From Pirellulales bacterium (GTDB lineage: Bacteria > Planctomycetota > Planctomycetia > Pirellulales > PALSA-1355): a stretch of DNA of 64,000 nucleotides. The notes under the pieces are model-generated. The model saw only the letters and a program-made list of their open reading frames with translations, had not been told where the DNA came from and did not search any database. The position numbers and the translations under genes are program-made. The DNA lies in the NCBI GenBank assembly GCA_963733035.1, contig CAVTBU010000007.1, positions 640,001-704,000 of the forward strand, in the 5' to 3' direction. This document shows positions 13,758-24,108 of this stretch, piece by piece; positions within the stretch are counted from its first letter, which is position 1, and every line of letters starts with the position of its first letter.

Positions 13758-14291
13758 ATGCGACGATTTCGTCGTCGACCGTACCGTGCTCTGATGTTAG
13801 GCGCGGCGATCGTGATCTTGCTACTTGCTCGGCAGTTCTGGGATCGCCCACGGGCTTCCGTTCCAAGCGACCCGCCCGCCGCTGGTTCGTATGAAGTGCT
13901 TCGCGTTGTTGACGGGGATACGATTCTCTTTGTTCCCGATATGCGTGTGCGCTTGATCGGCGTCAATACACCCGAAAGTGTCAAACCCGATCATCCCATC
14001 GAGCCGTGGGGTCCGGAGGCCAGCCAGTTTACGCACGATTTCTTGGCGGGCGGCACAGCGCGGCTGGAATTCGACCGCGAACGCTTCGACCAATACGGTC
14101 GCTTCCTAGCCTACGTCTGGGTGGGCAACCAGATGCTAAACGAAGAGTTACTTCGCGCCGGACTCGCTCGTTGGGAACCCAACTACAACTACTCCGGCGA
14201 AAAGAAAGACCGCTTTCGCAAAGCCCAGGACCAGGCCCGCGACGAGGGGCGAGGCGTGTGGTCGAGCAAAGCGCGAGCCGGGACGAGGTAG
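13758..14291 (+). CDS. Thermonuclease (SNase) family protein, membrane-anchored
   Basis: RVVDGDT, VRLIGVNTPE, DQYGRFLAYV, NEELLRAGLA; N-terminal TM. Confidence 0.92.
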   Translation: MRRFRRRPYRALMLGAAIVILLLARQFWDRPRASVPSDPPAAGSYEVLRVVDGDTILFVPDMRVRLIGVNTPESVKPDHPIEPWGPEASQFTHDFLAGGTARLEFDRERFDQYGRFLAYVWVGNQMLNEELLRAGLARWEPNYNYSGEKKDRFRKAQDQARDEGRGVWSSKARAGTR

Positions 14292-14698
14292 GCAGTTTCA
14301 AGGCTATGCTGGATCCAGTGTTCTTTCGGTCTACGGGCGGGATTTCGTCTGCCTGCGACTGACCGACCCACAAAGTCTGCTGAGCACGGCGGGACGCGAG
14401 AATCTTGTCACCAGAAGCCGGGGTAGATCATTCTGGCCTCGAGCCTTTGGTCTGCTCACGCTCCGAGTGCACTGGCACTCGTCGTTTGGACATTCTTGAA
14501 CGCGACCGACTCGAGCCTTGCAACTCGACGGCTAATTTTTCCGCCGCCATCGCGTGCGCGCCACCTCGAACATTCCGGGCCCATTTTGATTCGCGAGATG
14601 GTGCGGCCGCTCTACTCACCTTGGCAACTTGAGACGCTGGCTCGCCACTGCTAGAATCCTCGTTTTCGTTCGTTACGGTCACTACCCCGGGGGGTCCA

Positions 14699-15772
14699 TT
14701 GAACGCCAACCGATCACTTAAAATCGCCGTCGTAGGCGGAGATGGCACCGGCCCGGAAGTGGCCGCCGAGGGCATCAAGGTCCTCCGGGCTGTCGCCAAA
14801 CTTGACGGTTTCAAGTTTGAAACGACCGACTTTGATTTTGGCGGCGATCGCTACCTGCGAACCGGCGAGATCCTGCCCGAGGGGGCTGTCGAGAAGCTCA
14901 AGAAGTTCGATGCCATTTACCTCGGCGCGGTCGGTCACCCGGAGGTAAAGCCCGGCGTCTTGGAAAAGGGCTTGTTGCTCGAGCTTCGTTTTCAACTCGA
15001 TCAATACATCAATCTCCGCCCGGTGAAGCTCTTCCCCGGCGTCGAGACCCCACTCCGCGATAAGGGACCCGACGACATCGACTTCGTCGTCGTCCGCGAG
15101 AACACCGAGGATCTGTACTGCGGTGTGGGCGGTTTTCTAAAGAAGAACACCCCCGACGAGGTGGCGATGCAATCGGCCGTCTATACTCGCAAGGGCTGCG
15201 AGCGTTGCATCCGCTGGGCCTTCGAATTCACGCGCAAGCGAAACAATCCCAAAAAGATGCTCACGCTAGTGGCCAAGACCAACGTGCTCACTTACGGGCA
15301 CGACTTGTGGTGGCGCACATTTCAAGACGTGGCCCAGGAGTATCCGGACATCAAGCCGGACTACAACCACGTTGACGCCTGCTGCATGTGGATGGTGAAA
15401 AATCCCGAATACTACGACGTCATCGTCACCACGAACATGTTCGGCGACATTATCACCGACCTGGCCGGTATCCTACAGGGCGGTATGGGCGTCGCAGCGG
15501 GCGGGAATATTAATCCCGATCCGGGCGGCACCAGCATGTACGAACCGATGGGCGGCAGCGCACCCAAGTACACCGGTACCGGAAAAATCAACCCCATTGC
15601 GGCCATTAACGCCATGAGCATGCTGCTCGAGCACTCCGGCCAGCCCAAAGCCGCCCAGCGGATTCAATCGGCGATTCAGGTCGTAACGGGCACCAAAATG
15701 AAGAGCCAGGCTGCTGGCAAGATGGGCTATAGCACGTCCGATGTCGGCGATTTGGTGTGCGAGGCACTGTAG
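14699..15772 (+). CDS. leuB: 3-isopropylmalate dehydrogenase
   Basis: [54 protein letters not shown] start. Confidence 0.88.
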
Positions 15773-15861
15773 CGCAATCCGAGGCGACCGGGGGATAGCC
15801 ACACCGTGTGGCTGCCTTTTCCCCTTTCTGGCGAACCCACGTTCTGCAAGGAGACTTCATC

Positions 15862-16629
15862 ATGCATCCGCTGTTCGACCTTTCGGGACGTGTTGCACTG
15901 GTAACTGGTGGCAGTAAGGGGCTTGGTAAGGCGATGGCCCGTGTGTTTGTCGAAGCGGGCGCCGACGTCGTGATTTCGAGCCGGCACGAAGACGAGCTCA
16001 AAAAAACACAGGCGGAAATTCAAGATGGTACCAAGGCAAAAGTCGTGTACGTCGTCGCCGATATGACCAATCGCGATCAGGTGAAGGGGCTTGCCGAACG
16101 GACCTTGGCCGAGATGGGCCGCGTCGACATTCTGGTTAACAATGCGGGCAGCAACGTGCCTCAAGCAATCGATCAAATTACCGACGAAGCTTGGGATCGG
16201 ATTGTCGAGCTTAATCTCACCTCATGTATGTTGCTTACCCGGGCGCTGGTGCCGCAAATGAAAGCGCGAAAATGGGGCCGCGTAATCCACATCTCGTCGA
16301 TCATGGGCCTGGCCTCGAAGGACGCCCGCAACTCGTACTCGGCCACCAAGAGCGCGTTGTTGGGGCTAGCCCGCGCCAGCGCACTCGACCTCGGCGCATT
16401 CAACATCACGGTCAATTGCATTGCCCCGGGACCATTTCTTACCGACCTGCCTGGGTCACTGCTGTCCCCCGAACAGAAGAAGGCGCTGGCCGCACGCACG
16501 GCGCTGGAACGGTGGGGCGACCCGCGGGAACTGGCCGGTCCCGCTTTGCTGCTGGCAAGTGAGGCAGGCAGCTACATTACCGGAGAAGTTTTGGTGGTCG
16601 ACGGCGGCTCTCTGGCCAAGACGTTCTAG
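15862..16629 (+). CDS. SDR family oxidoreductase (gluconate 5-dehydrogenase-like)
   Basis: TGGSKGLG, NNAG, YSATK; AGGAG RBS. Confidence 0.92.
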   Translation: MHPLFDLSGRVALVTGGSKGLGKAMARVFVEAGADVVISSRHEDELKKTQAEIQDGTKAKVVYVVADMTNRDQVKGLAERTLAEMGRVDILVNNAGSNVPQAIDQITDEAWDRIVELNLTSCMLLTRALVPQMKARKWGRVIHISSIMGLASKDARNSYSATKSALLGLARASALDLGAFNITVNCIAPGPFLTDLPGSLLSPEQKKALAARTALERWGDPRELAGPALLLASEAGSYITGEVLVVDGGSLAKTF

Positions 16630-16710
16630 AACGCAGTTCAGCTCGCACCGTTTTGAGACGTTGCTGATCCGCAGCGGCCCCCACTTCTGCCGCGTTCGTT
16701 TATGCCAGCG

Positions 16711-16890
16711 CTATTTGCGGAGAATGAGCTTGCCGCTGCGCGTGACGCTTAGCCGGTAAGCCTCGGTGCCGTGGCGAATCACGATCTCGCGATTGCCTTG
16801 CATCAACTCCCGCGAGTTGACTTCACGCCGGCAAGCTCCCGCATCAACGGGGTTTGAAGTGCTGTCAGGTCTGATTGGTTCGGTGTTCAC
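16711..16890 (-). CDS. hemP: Hemin uptake protein HemP/HmuP
   Basis: VNSRELMQGNREIVIRHGTEAYRLSVTRSGKLILRK matches the HemP family pattern, including the C-terminal KLILxK; GTG start inferred. Confidence 0.85.
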   Translation of the reverse strand: MNTEPIRPDSTSNPVDAGACRREVNSRELMQGNREIVIRHGTEAYRLSVTRSGKLILRK

Positions 16891-16936
16891 CGCACACCAG
16901 CAGAGTTTAAGTCGCCAGGTTGAGTCATGGCGACTA

Positions 16937-16968
16937 GTTCTACGTTTATTGAGACTATATGTCAATAA
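16937..16968 (-). promoter_or_regulatory. hemP promoter (TTGACA-17-TAGAAC) overlapped by Fur-like palindrome TATTGAGA-CTATA-TGTCAATA (16947-16967)
   Basis: Inverted repeat TTATTGA...TCAATAA contains a perfect -35 hexamer on the minus strand; same geometry as the box at 17098. Confidence 0.65.
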
Positions 16969-17063
16969 CGTGGCCAGGTGAAGTGAATCGGTCAGCATTT
17001 TTTCAATGTAAACTATAGTAAATAAATGCTTTACGACAACGCACTTTTTTTCCGAGACGCGGA

Positions 17064-17118
17064 TTGACGCCGCGCAAGAAACGGTTAATATGACACTAAT
17101 TGAGACGCGATCTCAATT
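17064..17118 (+). promoter_or_regulatory. Promoter (TTGACG-16-TAATAT) followed by perfect palindrome AATTGAGA-CGCGA-TCTCAATT (17098-17118), Fur-like operator
   Basis: 8-5-8 inverted repeat at the expected +1 position in an AT-rich intergenic region. Confidence 0.65.
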
Positions 17119-17336
17119 TCTAGAGCTAGCCCGCCTCCTGGCACGTGCTCGTGCCGATTCGCCCGCCACGCTCAATGGCTTGGGCTGTCTGTCCGTTCTG
17201 CGAGATTTCTCGCCGCGCAGGCCGCCGATTCACCCCGAGTGCCGAGAAAGGAGCAGCTGCTGAATTGTTTTGAGCGTAGGTATTGGGAACCCGTTGTGTT
17301 TGAGATCCGCATTTCACAACCGAGGAAAGAATCGAC

Positions 17337-18038
17337 ATGAACCGCCATTTGTTTTTCACCTTGATTGCAGTTGCCGCCGGTCTGACCGCACATGCGGTGC
17401 ACGGCGCGTCGCTGCTGCCGACCGACGATGGTTTTGGCTATCAGTTTCTAGGCACGACACCGCTTAATGGTTCGCCACCATTTTCCGAGTACCTGCCCGC
17501 TGGTGCGACGACCACGGGTCACAACACCAAGTCGGCATTGAGATTCGACCTGTCCGGCGTGGGACTCGGGGCCGCCGACGTTACGTCGGCCACGCTGAGT
17601 TTATATGTGATCGACACCACGGTTACGGGCTTTGGTGCCAGCCCCGCGCCCGCTAGTCCGATTGTCGTCAGTCTGTTCGCGTTGGGGGCCGGCATCTGGG
17701 ATGAGGCGACACTAACATATGACAACATGCCCTCCACGACCGGTCCCGCCTACGATTCGATTTCCATCGACGGGGTTGATCAGAGCGTGTCATTCGACGT
17801 GACGGCGCTTGTCAAGGATTGGCTCGACGGCAGTGTGGCAAACAATGGGCTGGCACTTGTCGTCGACGTTCCGGTGGGCGCGTTGCCCAATTGGGTGTAT
17901 GCCGTGTTCAGTTCTTCCGAGTCTCAGACTTCACCTGAGCTTACCGTCGTACCCGAACCGGCAAGCGCGTTGATTGCGTTTCTTGCCGTCCCGGCGCTCG
18001 TGTGGTTTGGCCGTTGCCGAATCGAAAGTCGCAAGTAG
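17337..18038 (+). CDS. Secreted PEP-CTERM surface protein with DNRLRE-like beta-sandwich domain
   Basis: Signal peptide; SALRFDLS...VTSATLSLY...WDEATLTY...FDVTALVKDWL...NNGL...FSSSE...PELTV; VPEP + TM + basic tail. Confidence 0.88.
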   Translation: MNRHLFFTLIAVAAGLTAHAVHGASLLPTDDGFGYQFLGTTPLNGSPPFSEYLPAGATTTGHNTKSALRFDLSGVGLGAADVTSATLSLYVIDTTVTGFGASPAPASPIVVSLFALGAGIWDEATLTYDNMPSTTGPAYDSISIDGVDQSVSFDVTALVKDWLDGSVANNGLALVVDVPVGALPNWVYAVFSSSESQTSPELTVVPEPASALIAFLAVPALVWFGRCRIESRK

Positions 18039-18128
18039 ACGAAAAATCTCCCACCAGGCGGCGAGCCGGCGTGCCCCTTCGGCGGCCCGCCGCCAGCGTG
18101 TTGATTCAATTCGCTGACGAAGGCGCGA

Positions 18129-19076
18129 ATGAGGAACAGAATGGTTCGGTCACGCTTAATGCTCTCGGCCCGTCGCGCCGGCTTCTCGCTCGTGGAGTTA
18201 CTGGTCGTCATTGCGATCATCGGCGTGCTGGTGGCAATCATGTTGCCAGCCATCCAAGCCGCGCGAGAGGCTGCCCGCAGTGCTTCCTGTCGGAATAACC
18301 TGCGACAAATTAGCACCGCCATCCACCTGTATCACGACACTTGCCGTCATTTGCCCCCCGCACGCATCGACCAGGGCACGGTTGGTGCCGGGACCAGTAC
18401 GTTTTACATTATTCTTCCCTTCTTGGAGGAAGGAAACTTAGCCGACGGCTACGACAAATCGGCCGATTATCGCGACGGCGATAATCTGAAAGTTTCTAGC
18501 ACGATTGTCTCTCCGTACCTCTGTCCCTCAATGGTGCTGCCGCGTGACGTGCCCGACCCGGACCCGGCCTGCGCGGAGAAAGGTGCCCCGGGAAGCTATG
18601 CCGTATCGACGAGTTCGGACGTTTGCTTCATCCAACTGAACCTGATTCCAAAGCACAACGGCGCAATCGTCCACCCGCGATTTGGCCGGACGTCGATTGC
18701 CAAGATTTCCGCAGGCGACGGCTCTTCGAAGACGTTCATGGTTGGTGAAATGGACTATGGCCTGACGGACTACTATTGGACCACCTGTCATTCCGCGAAT
18801 TCCGTCCGCGGGGGCGCTATGCGCTGGGCCGTGGGCTATGCCGGAGTTACCTGGGGGTCAACGGTCGGTCCGATCAACAGCGCGACCGTCGGTGCGATAA
18901 AGTACGGGTTTTACAATGTTGGTTACGAGGCCTTCCGCAGCGATCACGCAGGTGGCGTGAACTTCGCCTTTGTTGACGGCAGCGTCCGCTTCATCAGCGA
19001 CGAGATTGATCCAAACCTGTACAAAGCCCTGGCGACTCGCGAAGGTGGAGAAATGATCGACAACTCGGCCTACTGA
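18129..19076 (+). CDS. DUF1559 prepilin-type N-terminal cleavage/methylation protein (H-X9-DG)
   Basis: GFSLVELLVVIAIIGVLVAIMLPAIQAAREAARSASCRNNLRQ; FRSDHAGGVNFAFVDGSV. Confidence 0.93.
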   Translation: MRNRMVRSRLMLSARRAGFSLVELLVVIAIIGVLVAIMLPAIQAAREAARSASCRNNLRQISTAIHLYHDTCRHLPPARIDQGTVGAGTSTFYIILPFLEEGNLADGYDKSADYRDGDNLKVSSTIVSPYLCPSMVLPRDVPDPDPACAEKGAPGSYAVSTSSDVCFIQLNLIPKHNGAIVHPRFGRTSIAKISAGDGSSKTFMVGEMDYGLTDYYWTTCHSANSVRGGAMRWAVGYAGVTWGSTVGPINSATVGAIKYGFYNVGYEAFRSDHAGGVNFAFVDGSVRFISDEIDPNLYKALATREGGEMIDNSAY

Positions 19077-19191
19077 ACGACGCGCCGTCCGATTCGCTGA
19101 AATTCCAACAACAACCGATTGCCGACGACGGATCGCCGGCCCAACAATTTGATAGTGATGCCGTCCGTTTCGCTTTGAAAGGAAACCAGCA

Positions 19192-20549
19192 ATGCTTCGC
19201 AATGTATGCTTGGGCCTCGTTTGTGCCGCCGCGCTCGGCACGCCCGCTTGGGCGCACTTTATTTGGCTTGACTTGAGGCCGAGTGTCGGTGGAAAGGGCC
19301 AGGCGAGACTCTATTTTTCCGAGGAGCCCGCTCCCGGCGAGGCCGACTTGATCGGCAAGGCCGCCAAGGCTCAGGTCTGGCTCCGTAAAGCCGACGGAAC
19401 CACTGCGGAATTAAAACTCGATTCCTCGACAGAAGATGAAGCCGTGTTGGTGGCCGAATGTGCATGCGACGGTGCCAGCCTGGAAGGTGTTTGGGATTAT
19501 GGTGTTTACTCGCGCGGACCGGTGGCAGGGCCGCTGCTGCAGTACTATGCGAAGGGGCTCACCGGAGATTGGGTGAAACACCCCAGTTTGTCCCACTCCA
19601 AAAAATTGAAACTCGACATTGTTCCTTCGCTTCAAGATCGGAAGCTATCCATTCAGGTGCTTTACGATGGCGAGTCGATCAAGGATTGCGACGTACTGTT
19701 CGTAGACCCCACCGGCCAGCAGCACGAGTTGACCACCGACGACCAGGGACGGGCGGAGGTCGAAGTCACGCCCGGTCAATGGGCCGTGCGTACCGCGAAG
19801 ATCGATGCCGACAACAGCGGCGAGCGCGACGGCAAGAAGTTCAGCCAAACCTGGCACTTTGCGACACTCACCGTTGACGTTCCCAGCCGTACACCAGCCG
19901 AAGAACAGGCCGTTGAGTCTGTCTCCGCCATCAACGCTTTGGTGCGGGCACGTAAACACCGAGCGGTCTGGCAGGACTTCCCCGGTTTCAAGGCCGACCT
20001 GACTGTTCTCTCGGACGAGAAGGTCATCAAGGGTACGATGGAGATCGATCGCGATGGTGTGGTGACACTCGATATGCCAAAGTCGAACATTGCCGACTGG
20101 GTGGAGGAACAGCTCAACTCAATGGTTCAGCACCGCATGCCGGACGGCGAAGTTTCTGAGGGCAACGTGACTTGGGCCCAAGAGGAAGGCGTGCATCCAC
20201 TGGGACGCAAGATCGATTTGGGCGATCCGAGACTGCAGAGCACTACCGCATCAAAGACGACGTCATCATGGAAGTGAACCGTTCGGCGGGTCCGACGATG
20301 CGGTTCACGATCAGCGTGTTGGAGATCGAGCGGAATCCGGAAGGGAAGTATCTTCCCCGTTCCTTTACCATGAATTTCTTCGATTCCAAGACCGGCGAAC
20401 TGCAGACGAGCCTTGGCTACCTAAATGCCTGGCAGCGGGTCGACGGCTTTGATTTACCTCGAACGATTGTCGAAGTCGACGCCCATCGGGGAGGCGCGAG
20501 CACCAGGCAAATTACCTTCAGCAACTGCCGACTACTCTCAGCCAGGTAG
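19192..20549 (+). CDS. Secreted DUF4198-like + DUF3386 fusion protein (frameshift near 20240)
   Basis: Signal ...AWA then HFIWL; QYYAK, LDIVP, TTDDQGRA, ATLT (DUF4198-like). ARKHRAVWQDFPGFKADL...SMVQHR, continuing in another frame as YRIKDDVIMEVNR...RFTISVL...GKYLP (DUF3386-like). Confidence 0.75.
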
Positions 20550-20589
20550 AGGCCACTGGGAAAGCTTCGCGGCTTCCGCGGGTGGAGCA

Positions 20590-21412
20590 TCACTTTCCGC
20601 TCGTGGTGGCCGCACCAGAAAGGTTGCGCGAGGCAATCATTTTCAGCACGCGCCACGGGCATCAAACGCTTGAGTCGCCAGAAGAACGTGGCCTCGCGCG
20701 GCACCGTGACGTACAGTTGCTTGCGATCGACGGCCTGGAGAATCTTCTGCGCCACGTGTTCGGCCGTGCATTTCGCGTCGGCCATCAGCTTGGTGGCGAC
20801 CTCGCGTTGTGCGTCTCCCTGAAAGCGGCCACTCTTGACAATGCTCGTGGGAAAGAACGAAGGGCAGACACCAGTCACGCCGACATGATGTGGCAACAAC
20901 TCGCCGTAAAGCGTTTCCGAGAGCGAGAGCACGCCGGCCTTGGTGACGTTGTAGGGCGCCATGCTGGGGGCCGATACGATCGCGGCCATCGACGCGATGT
21001 TCACGATGTGGGCGCCGCGCGGATTCGCCTTCAGCCATTCGACCATCGTGTGGCAGCCGTAGATCACACCCCACAGGTTGATATTGACGATCCATTGCCA
21101 GTCTTCCAGCGGAAGTTTGCCCACTTCGCCGCCCACACCGACTCCGGCGTTGTTCACCAGCAGGTCAAGCTGCGGCCAATCGGCTTGCAGCCGGTCGCGC
21201 AACGCTTCCCATTGTTCGACTTTTGTCACGTCCAAGTGTTCGACGCGCCCGTCTCCGCCCGCGGCTCGAACGAGCTTCAGGGTTTCTTCGCCGCCCGCGT
21301 CGTTGATATCGGCAACGGCGATGTGCCAACCGCGCTGGGCGAGCGCGACGGAAAGCGCGCGGCCCAATCCGCTGCCGGCTCCGCTGATCAATGCATACCT
21401 GGTCTGGCTCAT
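20590..21412 (-). CDS. SDR family oxidoreductase (indel near 20652; stop inferred at 20590)
   Basis: SGAGSGLG, NNAG, YNVTK. Confidence 0.88.
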
Positions 21413-21606
21413 CCTGGCAATCGTCCCGCGTTGGGTGGTGTGTGGGCGCCGCGGGCCAGTCGACTGCGACCGTTCCGCCACCGCGGTATTTGCAGATACG
21501 CGCATCGTTGGCCCGTGAGGTGCCCCGAGTGTAACGACAATGGACGTCCCGGCGAAAGAGGCGCCCGTGTCATTGCGGCTGGCGGGCGAAGGTGCAAGTC
21601 CGAATG

Positions 21607-22443
21607 CTACGTCGCAAGGGGGCTGTCCGGCGGCGATTTCCCGGCCTGGTGGAGCTGCCACAACAGCTCGGCGGTTTGAAACGGCTTGGAAATCACGCTG
21701 GCGACTCCCGCCGCACAAGCGGCACGCACATCGTCCGGACGCGGAAAGCTCGTGATTGCCAGGATCGGTGTCCCTGGCGATTGTTCTCGTATGCGACCGA
21801 TTCGTTCGTCATCCTGTAGCGCGGCGGCGTGCGTATCCCACAGTATGGCGTGGAATCGTATCGAGGGGGCGGGAGCGGCAGCTCCGGCGACGAACGTCTG
21901 GTAACCGGCGCGGCGGCAGACTTCGCAAAGGGCACGGCTGGCGGCCGAAGTCGGAGCCCGAACGAGAATCGCGCCGGATTGATCTACGTTTCCCAACGAA
22001 AGCGAATCACCCGCCAAGAGCTGTTCTTCCGGGGTTGCCGTAAGAGGCTGCGACCAACTTGGACGGCGACCGTCCAGGGAGGCTTCGAGCTCGATGGCCA
22101 TGCGCGAGGGCCACCGGTGCCAGTAGATTGCCGGACAACCCGAGGGTGGCCGCCCGCTTCGCGATTGGCCCTCGCACCAGCTTCCCGAGAGCCGGAGCAG
22201 GCGAGCCAAGGGAGCGGCCGCGCGGAGCGTGGCGACCGCCGCTTCACTCCAGACGCCGGGCCGCCTCTCGCAGAGGACAATGAGCGAGGGTGCGTATGCC
22301 ACGGCGTCGCCGAGCACGTTAAGAGCGCGCGACAAATCGGCGACTCGGCGCGCGCCCGGCACCCAGGCGGTTAGCTCCGTGCCGTCATAACCGCTGGTCG
22401 AGCGGGGCAGTTCGCCAACGAGCAGGACGTCGTGTGGATCCAT
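21607..22443 (-). CDS. Atypical response-regulator-like protein with C-terminal receiver domain
   Basis: AILWDT...PILAITSFPRPDDVRAACAAGVASVISKPF; N-terminal GSWCEGQSRSGRP segment. Confidence 0.65.
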   Translation of the reverse strand: MDPHDVLLVGELPRSTSGYDGTELTAWVPGARRVADLSRALNVLGDAVAYAPSLIVLCERRPGVWSEAAVATLRAAAPLARLLRLSGSWCEGQSRSGRPPSGCPAIYWHRWPSRMAIELEASLDGRRPSWSQPLTATPEEQLLAGDSLSLGNVDQSGAILVRAPTSAASRALCEVCRRAGYQTFVAGAAAPAPSIRFHAILWDTHAAALQDDERIGRIREQSPGTPILAITSFPRPDDVRAACAAGVASVISKPFQTAELLWQLHQAGKSPPDSPLAT

Positions 22444-22577
22444 GAAGGTGCGGTTCCAGTCTGCGTTTTCGACTGAGATTGGCGGGCGAACCAATAACGG
22501 ATTGGCAGCCCTGGTCGCAGTGTAGCGTAGAGCGTCTTGTCGGCTAAGAGTGACGCACGTCTGTACTCCGCGGGCGC

Positions 22578-22610
22578 AAAAAAAGCCCCGCGCTGCTGCG
22601 CGGGGCTTTT
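22578..22610 (-). terminator. Rho-independent terminator of the DUF1559 gene
   Basis: AAAAAAAGCCCCGCGC-tgct-GCGCGGGGCTTTT stem-loop with a T7 tract on the minus strand. Confidence 0.85.
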
Positions 22611-22633
22611 GAGGGGCTCGCTTGGTTTAGCAA

Positions 22634-23860
22634 CTATTCCGGAAGGTCAACGACGTCGTCCGCTCTCATGGTCGACAACCGCTGGTAGGTGAGCATGTCG
22701 ATGTCGTCGCCCAAGAAGTGCACGGAGCCGTCGGCAAACAGGAAGTTGCCTCCGCCACTATGATCGCTCCTGAAGTTGGCGGTAGAGAACTGCCACATGC
22801 CGGTCGGATTTGACTTGGAGTAGCTTGAATTCAATATTTTCGGGCCTAGGGTCATGGTTGGCGAACCAGGACCAGCCGGCGGCAATATGCCATTCGCCGG
22901 TGGTATCGAAATAAAATCTTCCTGGCCCGCTCCGTTATTGGGGCTCCAGCACTGGGTCACCGGATTTTTGTTCATCGGTTCGAGCGTGCAGGCATAGATC
23001 CCCGTCTCGAAGAGGGCAATGGCACCGGTAGCCACTTGCGTAAACGCGACCTGCCCGCAAATCCAGCCGGCCCAGGGCTTGTAAGGAAGTCCATTGTTCG
23101 ATTTGGTCGTCGGAACGTAGCGATTGTTGCTAGGCGCATTCAGGCTCGTGATCGACCAGGCGGAACCGTCGGCTCCCTCACCCATGGCAATCGTGTGCGA
23201 CGTGCCGTCGGTGATCTTGCGGATCGGCGCGCCCCAGTTCACGTCAAAAATGCCACGGTAGTACTTCGTTTGGTTTCCGGGAGCTCTGCACCACGTGTCG
23301 GAAATACCCTTGCAGAGGATGTAGTTTGTCGTGCCGTACCCCTGGTTCTTTAGCTGATAGCTGGGATTGCCGCTTTTATTAACCGCGATCAGAAATACCG
23401 TCGACAATTGTATGTCTTCATGGGGATTTTCGCCGTCGGCGCTCGGACAATTAAACACGGGGATCACCGTGGCCGGAACCGTGAAGTAGTAGTAACCGCC
23501 CGACGATTTCGTAACATCCCAAACCCCGGTCTGATGCTGCCAGTCGGTCGTCTGGTTGTAAAGACTTTTGAGAGCTGCTTCCTCGAAGTAAGGCAGCATC
23601 ATCGCATAGAAGGACGAATACGTTTGATTCTGATCGAAGGTGGTACCAGTGTCGATGGCGCCAGGCGGGAACGTTTTCAGCGCGTCGTGATAGGTTTGCA
23701 TCGCGATGCCGAACTGCTTGATGTTGTTCGTGCACTTCGACCGCCGAGCGGCCTCTCGCGCGGCCTGAATGGCCGGCAGCAACAGCGCCACGAGCACGCC
23801 GATGATGGCGATCACCACCAGCAGCTCCACCAGGGTAAATCCACGTTTTCTGCCCGTCAT
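22634..23860 (-). CDS. DUF1559 prepilin-type protein (H-X9-DG)
   Basis: MTGRKRGFTLVELLVVIAIIGVLVALLLPAIQAAREAARRSKCTNN; FRSDHSGGGNFLFADGSV. Confidence 0.93.
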   Translation of the reverse strand: MTGRKRGFTLVELLVVIAIIGVLVALLLPAIQAAREAARRSKCTNNIKQFGIAMQTYHDALKTFPPGAIDTGTTFDQNQTYSSFYAMMLPYFEEAALKSLYNQTTDWQHQTGVWDVTKSSGGYYYFTVPATVIPVFNCPSADGENPHEDIQLSTVFLIAVNKSGNPSYQLKNQGYGTTNYILCKGISDTWCRAPGNQTKYYRGIFDVNWGAPIRKITDGTSHTIAMGEGADGSAWSITSLNAPSNNRYVPTTKSNNGLPYKPWAGWICGQVAFTQVATGAIALFETGIYACTLEPMNKNPVTQCWSPNNGAGQEDFISIPPANGILPPAGPGSPTMTLGPKILNSSYSKSNPTGMWQFSTANFRSDHSGGGNFLFADGSVHFLGDDIDMLTYQRLSTMRADDVVDLPE

Positions 23861-24108
23861 AACCTGCACCCCCTTGTCATGGATGGGACACCACGCGTCG
23901 ATCGCAGCCGTGGTCACTAAAAGATAATAAGAGAATTGCCGGCGCCGACACTCCTGGCCAGCGCCCGAACCCTAGTATCTGCTTTTACGCTTCCTTTGTC
24001 AAAGGATTTCCCCAGGATTCGAACCAACCCAATTCAGCCCCGCCAGTAGGCCCCCGGCAACGTGCCGGCATCAGGGGGCCGCGGGCGCGGCGAGCGCAGA
24101 TTAGCTCG

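Follow-up and report, generated by a model that had tools for sequence, protein, structure and literature searches.

A hemP gene and its divergent operon probably form an undescribed iron-starvation system in a planctomycete

What does a hemP gene serve in a bacterium that keeps no haem receptor beside it? The question is raised by a locus of a soil or freshwater planctomycete of the order Pirellulales (assembly GCA_963733035.1), located at positions 16711-20549 of a 64,000-nucleotide stretch (the window; contig CAVTBU010000007.1, positions 640,001 to 704,000). From the letters of the DNA, an earlier reading, hereafter the original prediction, had described hemP facing an operon of three genes for exported proteins, and had proposed a module that acquires iron or haem independently of TonB. 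Open reading frame (ORF) listing and family scans confirmed this layout of four genes, encoding HemP, an exported DNRLRE-domain protein with a PEP-CTERM-type tail, a DUF1559 protein and a DUF4198-DUF3386 fusion (Table 1). Likewise, family scans detected no TonB-dependent receptor, ABC transporter or Hmu gene among the ORFs of 14000-24000, as had been claimed. Because hemP and the operon share a DNA switch that is also found before iron-transport genes, the locus is probably an undescribed iron-starvation system.

The switch is a palindrome. The pattern ATTGAGA-N5-TnTCAAT is present twice in the window, against 0.05 occurrences expected by chance, a count reached in 0 of 100 shuffles; the claim that both promoters carry the same palindrome therefore stands. 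Its consensus, TGAGACT-n-AGTCTCA, is a 7-1-7 inverted repeat, a layout described for Fur operators (PMC11353095). A simple scan returned 4 promoter-like sites versus 0.3 in shuffles, and because the boxes sit on the predicted -10 element of hemP and on the predicted start site of the opposite operon, iron scarcity would activate both directions. Among the 14 hemP-bearing loci of relatives, a position weight matrix (PWM) built from 13 sites in relatives detected a pair of boxes in 13, with a spacing of 145-165 bp. Sequence comparison thus supports the co-regulation of hemP and the operon.

The same box accompanies iron genes. With a refined matrix and a threshold of PWM at least 17, the genome that holds the window contains 6 sites, compared to 0 in the reversed control: the two window boxes, one site that precedes feoA-feoB by 171 bp, one some 45 bp before another DUF1559 gene, and two more. 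Across the order, 26 of the 30 feoB loci retrieved, from 30 genomes, have the box upstream of feoAB, and 21 of 30 hemP loci have it beside hemP. The exact form TTGAGA-N5-TCTCAA occupies 38 places in 19 of the 33 family genomes, versus 2 for the backwards control. We then scanned 29 ORFs flanking the 25 exact-box places outside the hemP and feoAB loci. They include PepSY_TM proteins from two genomes, a Bfd-type [2Fe-2S] ferredoxin on two contigs of a single genome, DUF1559 and PEP-CTERM proteins, and an AHFLF-type N-terminus, as in the fusion, attached to Kelch repeats; no zinc or nickel gene was among them. Since the box is shared with feoAB, with hemP across the order, with bfd and with PepSY_TM genes, iron regulation is supported, which strengthens the iron link of the original prediction, and the comparative data point to the palindrome being a Fur-type iron box. 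Taken together, the locus is a real and conserved module, probably repressed by iron, which would combine Fur-controlled periplasmic metal capture with two uncharacterised protein families and a candidate leader element.

Table 1. Coordinates (window numbering) of the features of the hemP locus.
Feature	Position	Strand	Basis or remark
hemP, HemP/HmuP-family small protein, about 60 aa from GTG at 16893	16711..16893	-	PF10636
Box 1, ATTGAGACTATATGTCAAT	16948..16966	.	Over the predicted -10 (TATAGT, 16959-16954) of hemP
Predicted operon promoter, TTGACG-16-TAATAT	17064..17091	+	Promoter scan; -35 TTGAC invariant in 12 orthologous loci
Box 2, ATTGAGACGCGATCTCAAT	17099..17117	.	Where operon transcription is predicted to start
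Conserved 5' leader	17118..17336	+	Alignment A5 of 12 loci
Exported DNRLRE/CBM96-domain protein with PEP-CTERM-like tail, 233 aa	17337..18038	+	NF033679, PF24517
DUF1559 / H-X9-DG pseudopilin-like protein, 315 aa	18129..19076	+	PF07596, PF07963, TIGR04294
First frame of the fusion gene (signal peptide, His1 DUF4198 domain, first half of DUF3386)	19192..20241	+	ORF continues out of frame to 20277
Frame break	20242..20243	+	Two bases where orthologs hold one codon (Ala/Val) between Ser and Tyr
Fusion gene, second frame: C-terminal half of DUF3386	20244..20549	+	PF11866, 52.8 bits, profile 111-211

How widely is this arrangement conserved? The four-gene form, with hemP divergent from the PEP-CTERM-type, DUF1559 and fusion genes, is present in 10 of 20 loci of relatives, and in two further loci beyond these 20. 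Other arrangements among the 20 are hemP followed by a DUF1559-fusion pair (1 locus), the DUF1559-fusion pair without hemP (2 loci) and the fusion alone (4 loci, two of them cut by contig ends); three other families likewise contain the DUF1559-fusion pair. Within 1.5 kb of the 30 hemP genes sampled across the order, the neighbours encode DUF1559 proteins (7 cases), CBM96/PEP-CTERM proteins (2), a DUF4198-Kelch fusion (1), dockerin-type exported proteins (2), a cobA/hemD fusion combining TP_methylase and HEM4 (2 genomes) and a TonB_C protein (1), the last two kinds being seen in other Pirellulales at loci L184, L203 and L194. Since the exported partners vary between loci, the constant core consists of hemP and the boxes. 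Two exported proteins share an AHFL[FW]-type N-terminus, like that of the fusion, joined to Kelch repeats instead of DUF3386 (L190:3-1361 in genome G037 and L116:1-1308 in genome G001). PF10670 reaches 38.3 bits in the former, and the latter matches only Kelch families. One lies beside hemP with box and leader motif and the other behind a box; they would represent a second fusion architecture of the regulon.

HemP itself is unambiguous at the family level, with a PF10636 score of 51.8 bits (cut-off 25; 52.9 bits in the genome scan, where the window copy is the sole hemP of the genome) and structural relatives in the Protein Data Bank (PDB; 2jra, 4ynx). The mechanically called ORF (16711-16998, 95 aa) overruns box 1. 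Starting from the GTG at 16893 yields a protein of 60 aa, matching the 60-73 aa of its orthologs, and this start leaves box 1 in the hemP promoter. The original prediction placed hemP in an acquisition module; its HemP/HmuP relatives, however, act as regulators and not as uptake proteins, and the accounts available for ChuP and for B. multivorans HemP report haem binding and activation of target genes. Nor does the expected company of a haem receptor or hmu genes hold here, as none lies in 14000-24000 and the lone receptor-like gene, elsewhere in the genome, carries no box. As with HemP, HmuP and ChuP, we find a PF10636 protein, a Fur-type box and putative targets next to the gene. Unlike in Proteobacteria, from which the available descriptions of the family come, these putative targets are not TonB-dependent receptors and the gene is divergent, not first in an operon; hemP is nevertheless present in 66 of 101 Pirellulales genomes.

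If HemP is a regulator, on what might it act? About 238 nt separate box 2 from the ATG of the first operon gene, and this leader is unusually conserved over the 12 aligned loci. Its invariant blocks are the C-rich GAGCTAGCCCGCC (17123-17135) and CCGATTCGCCCGCCACGCTC (17154-17173), GAGCGT (17272-17277) and GAGG..GAATCGACATG (17322-17339), and the double C-rich motif occurs once in the genome. ChuP/HmuP has been proposed to act post-transcriptionally through a C-rich element of the 5' untranslated region, the HmuP-responsive element (HPRE), made in Chromobacterium of AGCCAGCC repeats (bioRxiv 10.1101/2022.02.10.479982), which the GCC[C/A]GCCAC repeat of the leader resembles. By analogy, HemP may act on the operon leader. 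The motif, adjoining hemP and boxes, recurs in families f2, f9 and f14; in f2 the genes of the operon behind it all encode PEP-CTERM proteins, and in family f11 it stands with boxes on a contig that ends before any hemP. Over 201 genomes, the loose pattern AGCTAGC-N12-42-GCCnGCCAC proved noisier than its backwards control. We consequently retained only box-adjacent matches (L137, L171, L172 and L173), and dropped L167-L170 as coding-region noise. RNAalifold pairs the 17154 block with the ribosome-binding region and with the downstream GAGCGTG, and an Rfam search of 16500-20700 gave 0 matches at E<=1. In a same-genus relative (L026:6200-6800), about 3.5 tandem copies of the 15-nt unit CATGAATTCGCCGCA replace the GCCnGCCAC leader before the fusion gene.

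We next turn to the fusion protein. Its mature chain begins AWA/HFIW; 18 of 19 orthologous ORFs retain the motif AHF[IVL]W, and H1 is invariant in the ortholog alignment A1. The window piece scores 32.5 bits with DUF4198 (PF10670), under the threshold of 34, so that its place in the family depends on the fold match; most of the 120 homologs listed carry a precomputed PF10670 assignment. Modelled by AlphaFold from a 16-row alignment, an intact ortholog reached a pLDDT of 89.3 and contains the three-layer beta fold of the solved DUF4198 members. Its first domain matches both the Ni-bound IsDUF4198 (9gcb; E 3.1e-10, TMt 0.62) and the Zn-bound Zcp (9mhl_B; TMt 0.69, root-mean-square deviation (rmsd) 3.9). 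The DUF4198 profile alignment spans only residues 113-178, and E22, Y82 and Y97 are invariant candidates for metal ligands. According to the IsDUF4198 report, 79% of DUF4198 proteins carry an N-terminal His after cleavage, and His1 and His18 hold the Ni of IsDUF4198 (PMC12537917). We therefore retain, as a prediction from fold and family, the metal-binding role that had been suggested for the His1 domain: this N-terminal domain would chelate a metal ion.

The second half of the fusion is assigned to DUF3386 (PF11866), with 45.2 bits over profile positions 4-90 and a second match given in Table 1, for a cut-off of 25. Modelled alone (pLDDT 91.3, pTM 0.86), it adopts a half-barrel of the LolA/LolB superfamily, with a Foldseek probability of 1.0 and best matches to LolB 9tpm (Z 9.3), 3bk5 (9.2) and 4z48 (9.1). 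Like LolA/LolB (9tpm, 3bk5, 3buu; DUF1329 4z48), the domain is predicted to form an open, helix-containing beta-barrel (Z 8.2-9.3, with 147-160 residues aligned at an rmsd of 3.5-3.8 A). Unlike them, it forms the C-terminal half of a fusion with DUF4198, and at 8-12% identity the likeness is one of fold only, with no lipoprotein-sorting role shown. Invariant His, Tyr and Arg residues are kept in this half. The 215 homologs found at E<=1e-5 are annotated only 'DUF3386 family protein', the atlas matches are DUF3386 clusters, no NCBIfam family matched the fusion, and no paper in the literature searched mentions DUF3386. The 22 loci found in species genomes are labelled as Pirellulales, other Planctomycetota or uncultured-bacterium metagenome-assembled genomes (MAGs), or Schlesneria MAGs.

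The two remaining products are also envelope proteins by their domains. The 233-aa protein matches NF033679 (88 bits) and PF24517 (48.3 bits). It is exported and has a VPEP-hydrophobic-Arg tail (VPEP...RCR), and two exosortase (EpsH) genes (215 and 195 bits) are present in the genome. The DUF1559 protein was correctly called prepilin-like: the N-methylation motif (PF07963, 30 bits), the DUF1559 body (PF07596, 153.8 bits) and the H-X9-DG motif (TIGR04294, 36.7 bits, cut-off 19) all score above threshold, and its N-terminal helix matches type IV pilins. A predicted complex of its globular part with the fusion obtained a score of 0.01.

How do these parts compare with known systems? Zcp (NGO1049 of Neisseria gonorrhoeae, PDB 9MHI-9MHN) and IsDUF4198 (9GCB, Ideonella sakaiensis) are, like the fusion, Sec-exported, with the same N-terminal-domain fold and an exposed N-terminal His, and the metal-responsive operator of Fur-family type recalls Zcp, which is reported to be Zur-controlled. 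Neither the His triad of Zcp (H29/H31/H142) nor His18 of IsDUF4198 is evidently kept in the fusion, however, and here the domain is fused with the LolA-like DUF3386, iron genes instead of zinc or nickel genes share the operator, and the neighbours encode a pseudopilin and a PEP-CTERM-type protein instead of TonB receptors or NikR. Another parallel comes from Caulobacter crescentus, in which the DUF4198 genes CC2193, adjoining a hemin receptor, and CC3061 are given as the strongest Fur-derepressed genes of the study (PMC3751524). There, low iron and fur deletion are described to derepress the genes, with Fur sites over the promoter, whereas here the regulation is deduced from conserved boxes. 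As described, the Caulobacter genes are single-domain and stand with a TonB-dependent receptor or with a DUF2271/ApbE/flavoprotein set; ours encodes a two-domain fusion.

With moderate confidence, we favour an iron-starvation divergon of this Pirellulales planctomycete, whose most likely task, in a cell without TonB-type import, would be to capture or buffer iron (or a chelate of it) at the surface or in the periplasm when the metal is limiting. A repressor of the Fur family would bind both 7-1-7 boxes, and low iron would turn on hemP and the operon together with feoAB. HemP would probably provide a second, positive input through the GCCnGCCAC-repeat leader. The operon would supply the envelope with the DNRLRE protein, held by a PEP-CTERM-type anchor, the DUF1559 pseudopilin and the Sec-exported two-domain protein. 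In the latter, the free N-terminal His of the DUF4198 domain would chelate a metal ion, and the DUF3386 half-barrel could accommodate a hydrophobic ligand or serve as a docking site for a partner. A more elaborate version for Pirellulales, mostly devoid of TonB-type import, is unlikely: a Fur-repressed, HemP-activated envelope relay for iron or an iron chelate in which the PEP-CTERM surface binder and the DUF1559 pseudopilin would hand over their cargo to the His1-DUF4198/LolA-like carrier, and this carrier to FeoAB or an unknown permease, with HemP acting on an HPRE-like leader RNA.

Several observations weigh against the divergon as we read it. On the regulatory side, two of the six strongest sites of the genome stand beside genes without iron link (C5:442695 and C8:428752, PWM 27.2 and 22.6; a TPR protein / FN3 protein, and a small membrane protein with a LemA-like gene downstream). 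The genome contains one Fur-like gene (C7:410376-410735) and one PerR-like gene, and no box precedes either, even at PWM at least 4; hence the repressor is not tied to a gene, and autoregulation of the Fur genes was rejected. The leader motif is found at just 3 of 30 hemP loci across the order. In its helices, 94% of cells pair, and covariation does not exceed that of shuffles (42/500). Sequestration of the ribosome-binding site by the leader was rejected, as duplex z-scores (-3.3 to +2.2) were inconsistent outside family f1. On the protein side, His18, which provides the second Ni ligand in IsDUF4198, has no obvious counterpart, an invariant Glu lying near that position, and the solved DUF4198 proteins are described to bind Ni or Zn, with no Fe density reported for the Zcp crystals (PMC12537917, PMC12663993). 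PF07589 scores 15.8 bits on the last 33 residues of the 233-aa protein, below its cut-off of 20.7 (14.6-17.0 bits in the orthologs). The PEP-CTERM assignment of the original prediction is putative. Finally, the fusion gene is frame-broken in this genome, and three of the 20 loci of relatives, all from the same genus, hold only hemP and the fusion, without the PEP-CTERM-type and DUF1559 genes and without the leader. The claimed arrangement is therefore conserved in half of these loci and reduced in three, and the three exported proteins do not form an obligatory unit, another family having PEP-CTERM genes only.

Two isolated sites are recorded here in their own right. The site of the genome closest to the classical Fur box AAATGATAATCATTGTCATGC (C5:250522, at most 2 mismatches to the 15-mer) may belong to the second Fur-family regulator. 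A one-mismatch match to the pattern at C5:914327, 1.6 kb from a paralogous fusion gene, lies in a dehydrogenase gene and under the refined PWM, and was read as chance.

Could the module rather remodel the cell surface when iron is low? In such a scheme, the PEP-CTERM-type protein and the pseudopilin would alter adhesion or the surface, and the fusion would just buffer metal for envelope enzymes, in the manner of Zcp. Zcp is indeed described as a Zur-controlled protein that captures zinc in the periplasm, is not needed for uptake and helps to maintain the integrity of the envelope, its crystals taking Zn, Cu, Co and Ni, and not Fe (PMC12663993). The DNRLRE/CBM96 domain of the first gene product is of a carbohydrate-binding type, hemP faces PEP-CTERM genes only in family f2, and dockerin- and Kelch-bearing exported proteins stand beside hemP elsewhere. 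Nevertheless, the shared box suggests that the fusion is co-regulated with feoAB, the His1 domain is kept in all orthologs, and the hemP-fusion pair exists without surface genes in three relatives. We consider this explanation improbable.

Haem uptake, in which the PEP-CTERM-type protein would bind haem, the DUF1559 pseudopilus pass it inward and the DUF3386 barrel carry it, the whole replacing a TonB-dependent receptor, is quite unlikely. Members of the hemP family are reported to control haem receptors and to bind haem, the LolA-like fold is one that holds hydrophobic ligands and here carries the invariant His, Tyr and Arg, and a cobA/hemD tetrapyrrole gene neighbours hemP at 2 of the 30 loci. 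The absence of TonB_C from the genome, which is 92% complete, is also in agreement with such a route; together with the boxless state of the single TonB-dependent-receptor-like gene (C3:78222-80373), it upholds the TonB-independence of the original prediction. Its haem component, by contrast, is weakened. Neither canonical haem oxygenase (PF01126) nor HemS (PF05171) was found in the same 92%-complete genome, the locus has no inner-membrane haem transporter, and no haem-binding fold appeared among the structure matches, all in addition to the Ni or Zn of the solved DUF4198 proteins. Moreover, hemP need not point to haem, because ChuP is reported to control a siderophore receptor too.

A different metal regulator at the box (Zur-, Nur- or Mur-like), with a module that handles Zn, Ni, Co or Mn like the DUF4198 proteins of Zcp or NikK type, is very unlikely. 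In its favour, Zn is reportedly bound by the Zur-controlled Zcp and Ni by IsDUF4198, which is found near NikR; the 7-1-7 layout is common to Fur-family boxes of different metals; and neither Fur-family gene could be matched to the box. Against it, the box is conserved at feoAB and also marks bfd, PepSY_TM and hemP, typical iron-regulon genes, and the 29 flanking ORFs scanned included no zinc or nickel gene.

The divergon reading makes the locus useful beyond this genome. DUF1559 is among the largest unexplained protein families of planctomycetes, and the locus ties it, together with DUF3386 and a HemP from outside the Proteobacteria, to an operator shared with feoAB, which gives an iron-linked handle on both DUF families. 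It also yields a candidate iron box for the order and a short list of regulon genes, and predicts induction by low iron as well as binding of metal or haem by the fusion protein. If the relay version were true, it would provide the first concrete functions for DUF1559, DUF3386 and the planctomycete HemP. The literature searched, as far as its text was available, contained no description of planctomycete iron uptake without TonB systems.

Does the frame break disable the fusion gene? The secreted fusion of the original prediction stands as to signal peptide, DUF4198 and DUF3386 domains and mature N-terminus, but not as one ORF over 19192-20549, which is covered by two ORFs (19192-20277 and 20172-20549) in different frames. 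The orthologs read through in a single frame (...LGDPsLQS-A/V-YRIKDD...), and the matching open frames are of 438-558 aa in relatives versus 372 here. Since only two bases stand where the orthologs have a codon, one base is missing near 20242. Programmed frameshifting or recoding was rejected: the orthologs keep one frame and no slippery sequence is present at the break. The break would be either an assembly indel or a recent inactivation making a pseudogene, and we lean towards assembly indels because other genes of this genome, and of few-contig relatives, are split too. Three other inspected genes show this, including the paralogous DUF4198-DUF3386 gene (C5:915895-917245; L047:2396-3746) and the TonB-receptor-like gene mentioned above, and split genes occur likewise in several of the few-contig relatives. 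In public reads, 4 DNA runs cover 0.05-0.14 of the stretch, with no contig across 20242, and no RNA run with the stretch is listed.

The flanks of the locus hold dehydrogenase genes, a degenerate receiver-domain gene and another DUF1559 gene. The latter (22634-23917, minus strand), longer than that of the operon (427 aa) and with no box near, adjoins the gene at 21607-22494 (minus strand), whose product has only a partial receiver domain (PF00072, 26.4 bits, under the cut-off). Convergent to the operon, an ORF for a short-chain dehydrogenase on the minus strand (20417-21718) shares 133 nt with the 3' end of the fusion gene, and the tblastn matches to its tail in relatives correspond to the antisense of the conserved fusion C-terminus.

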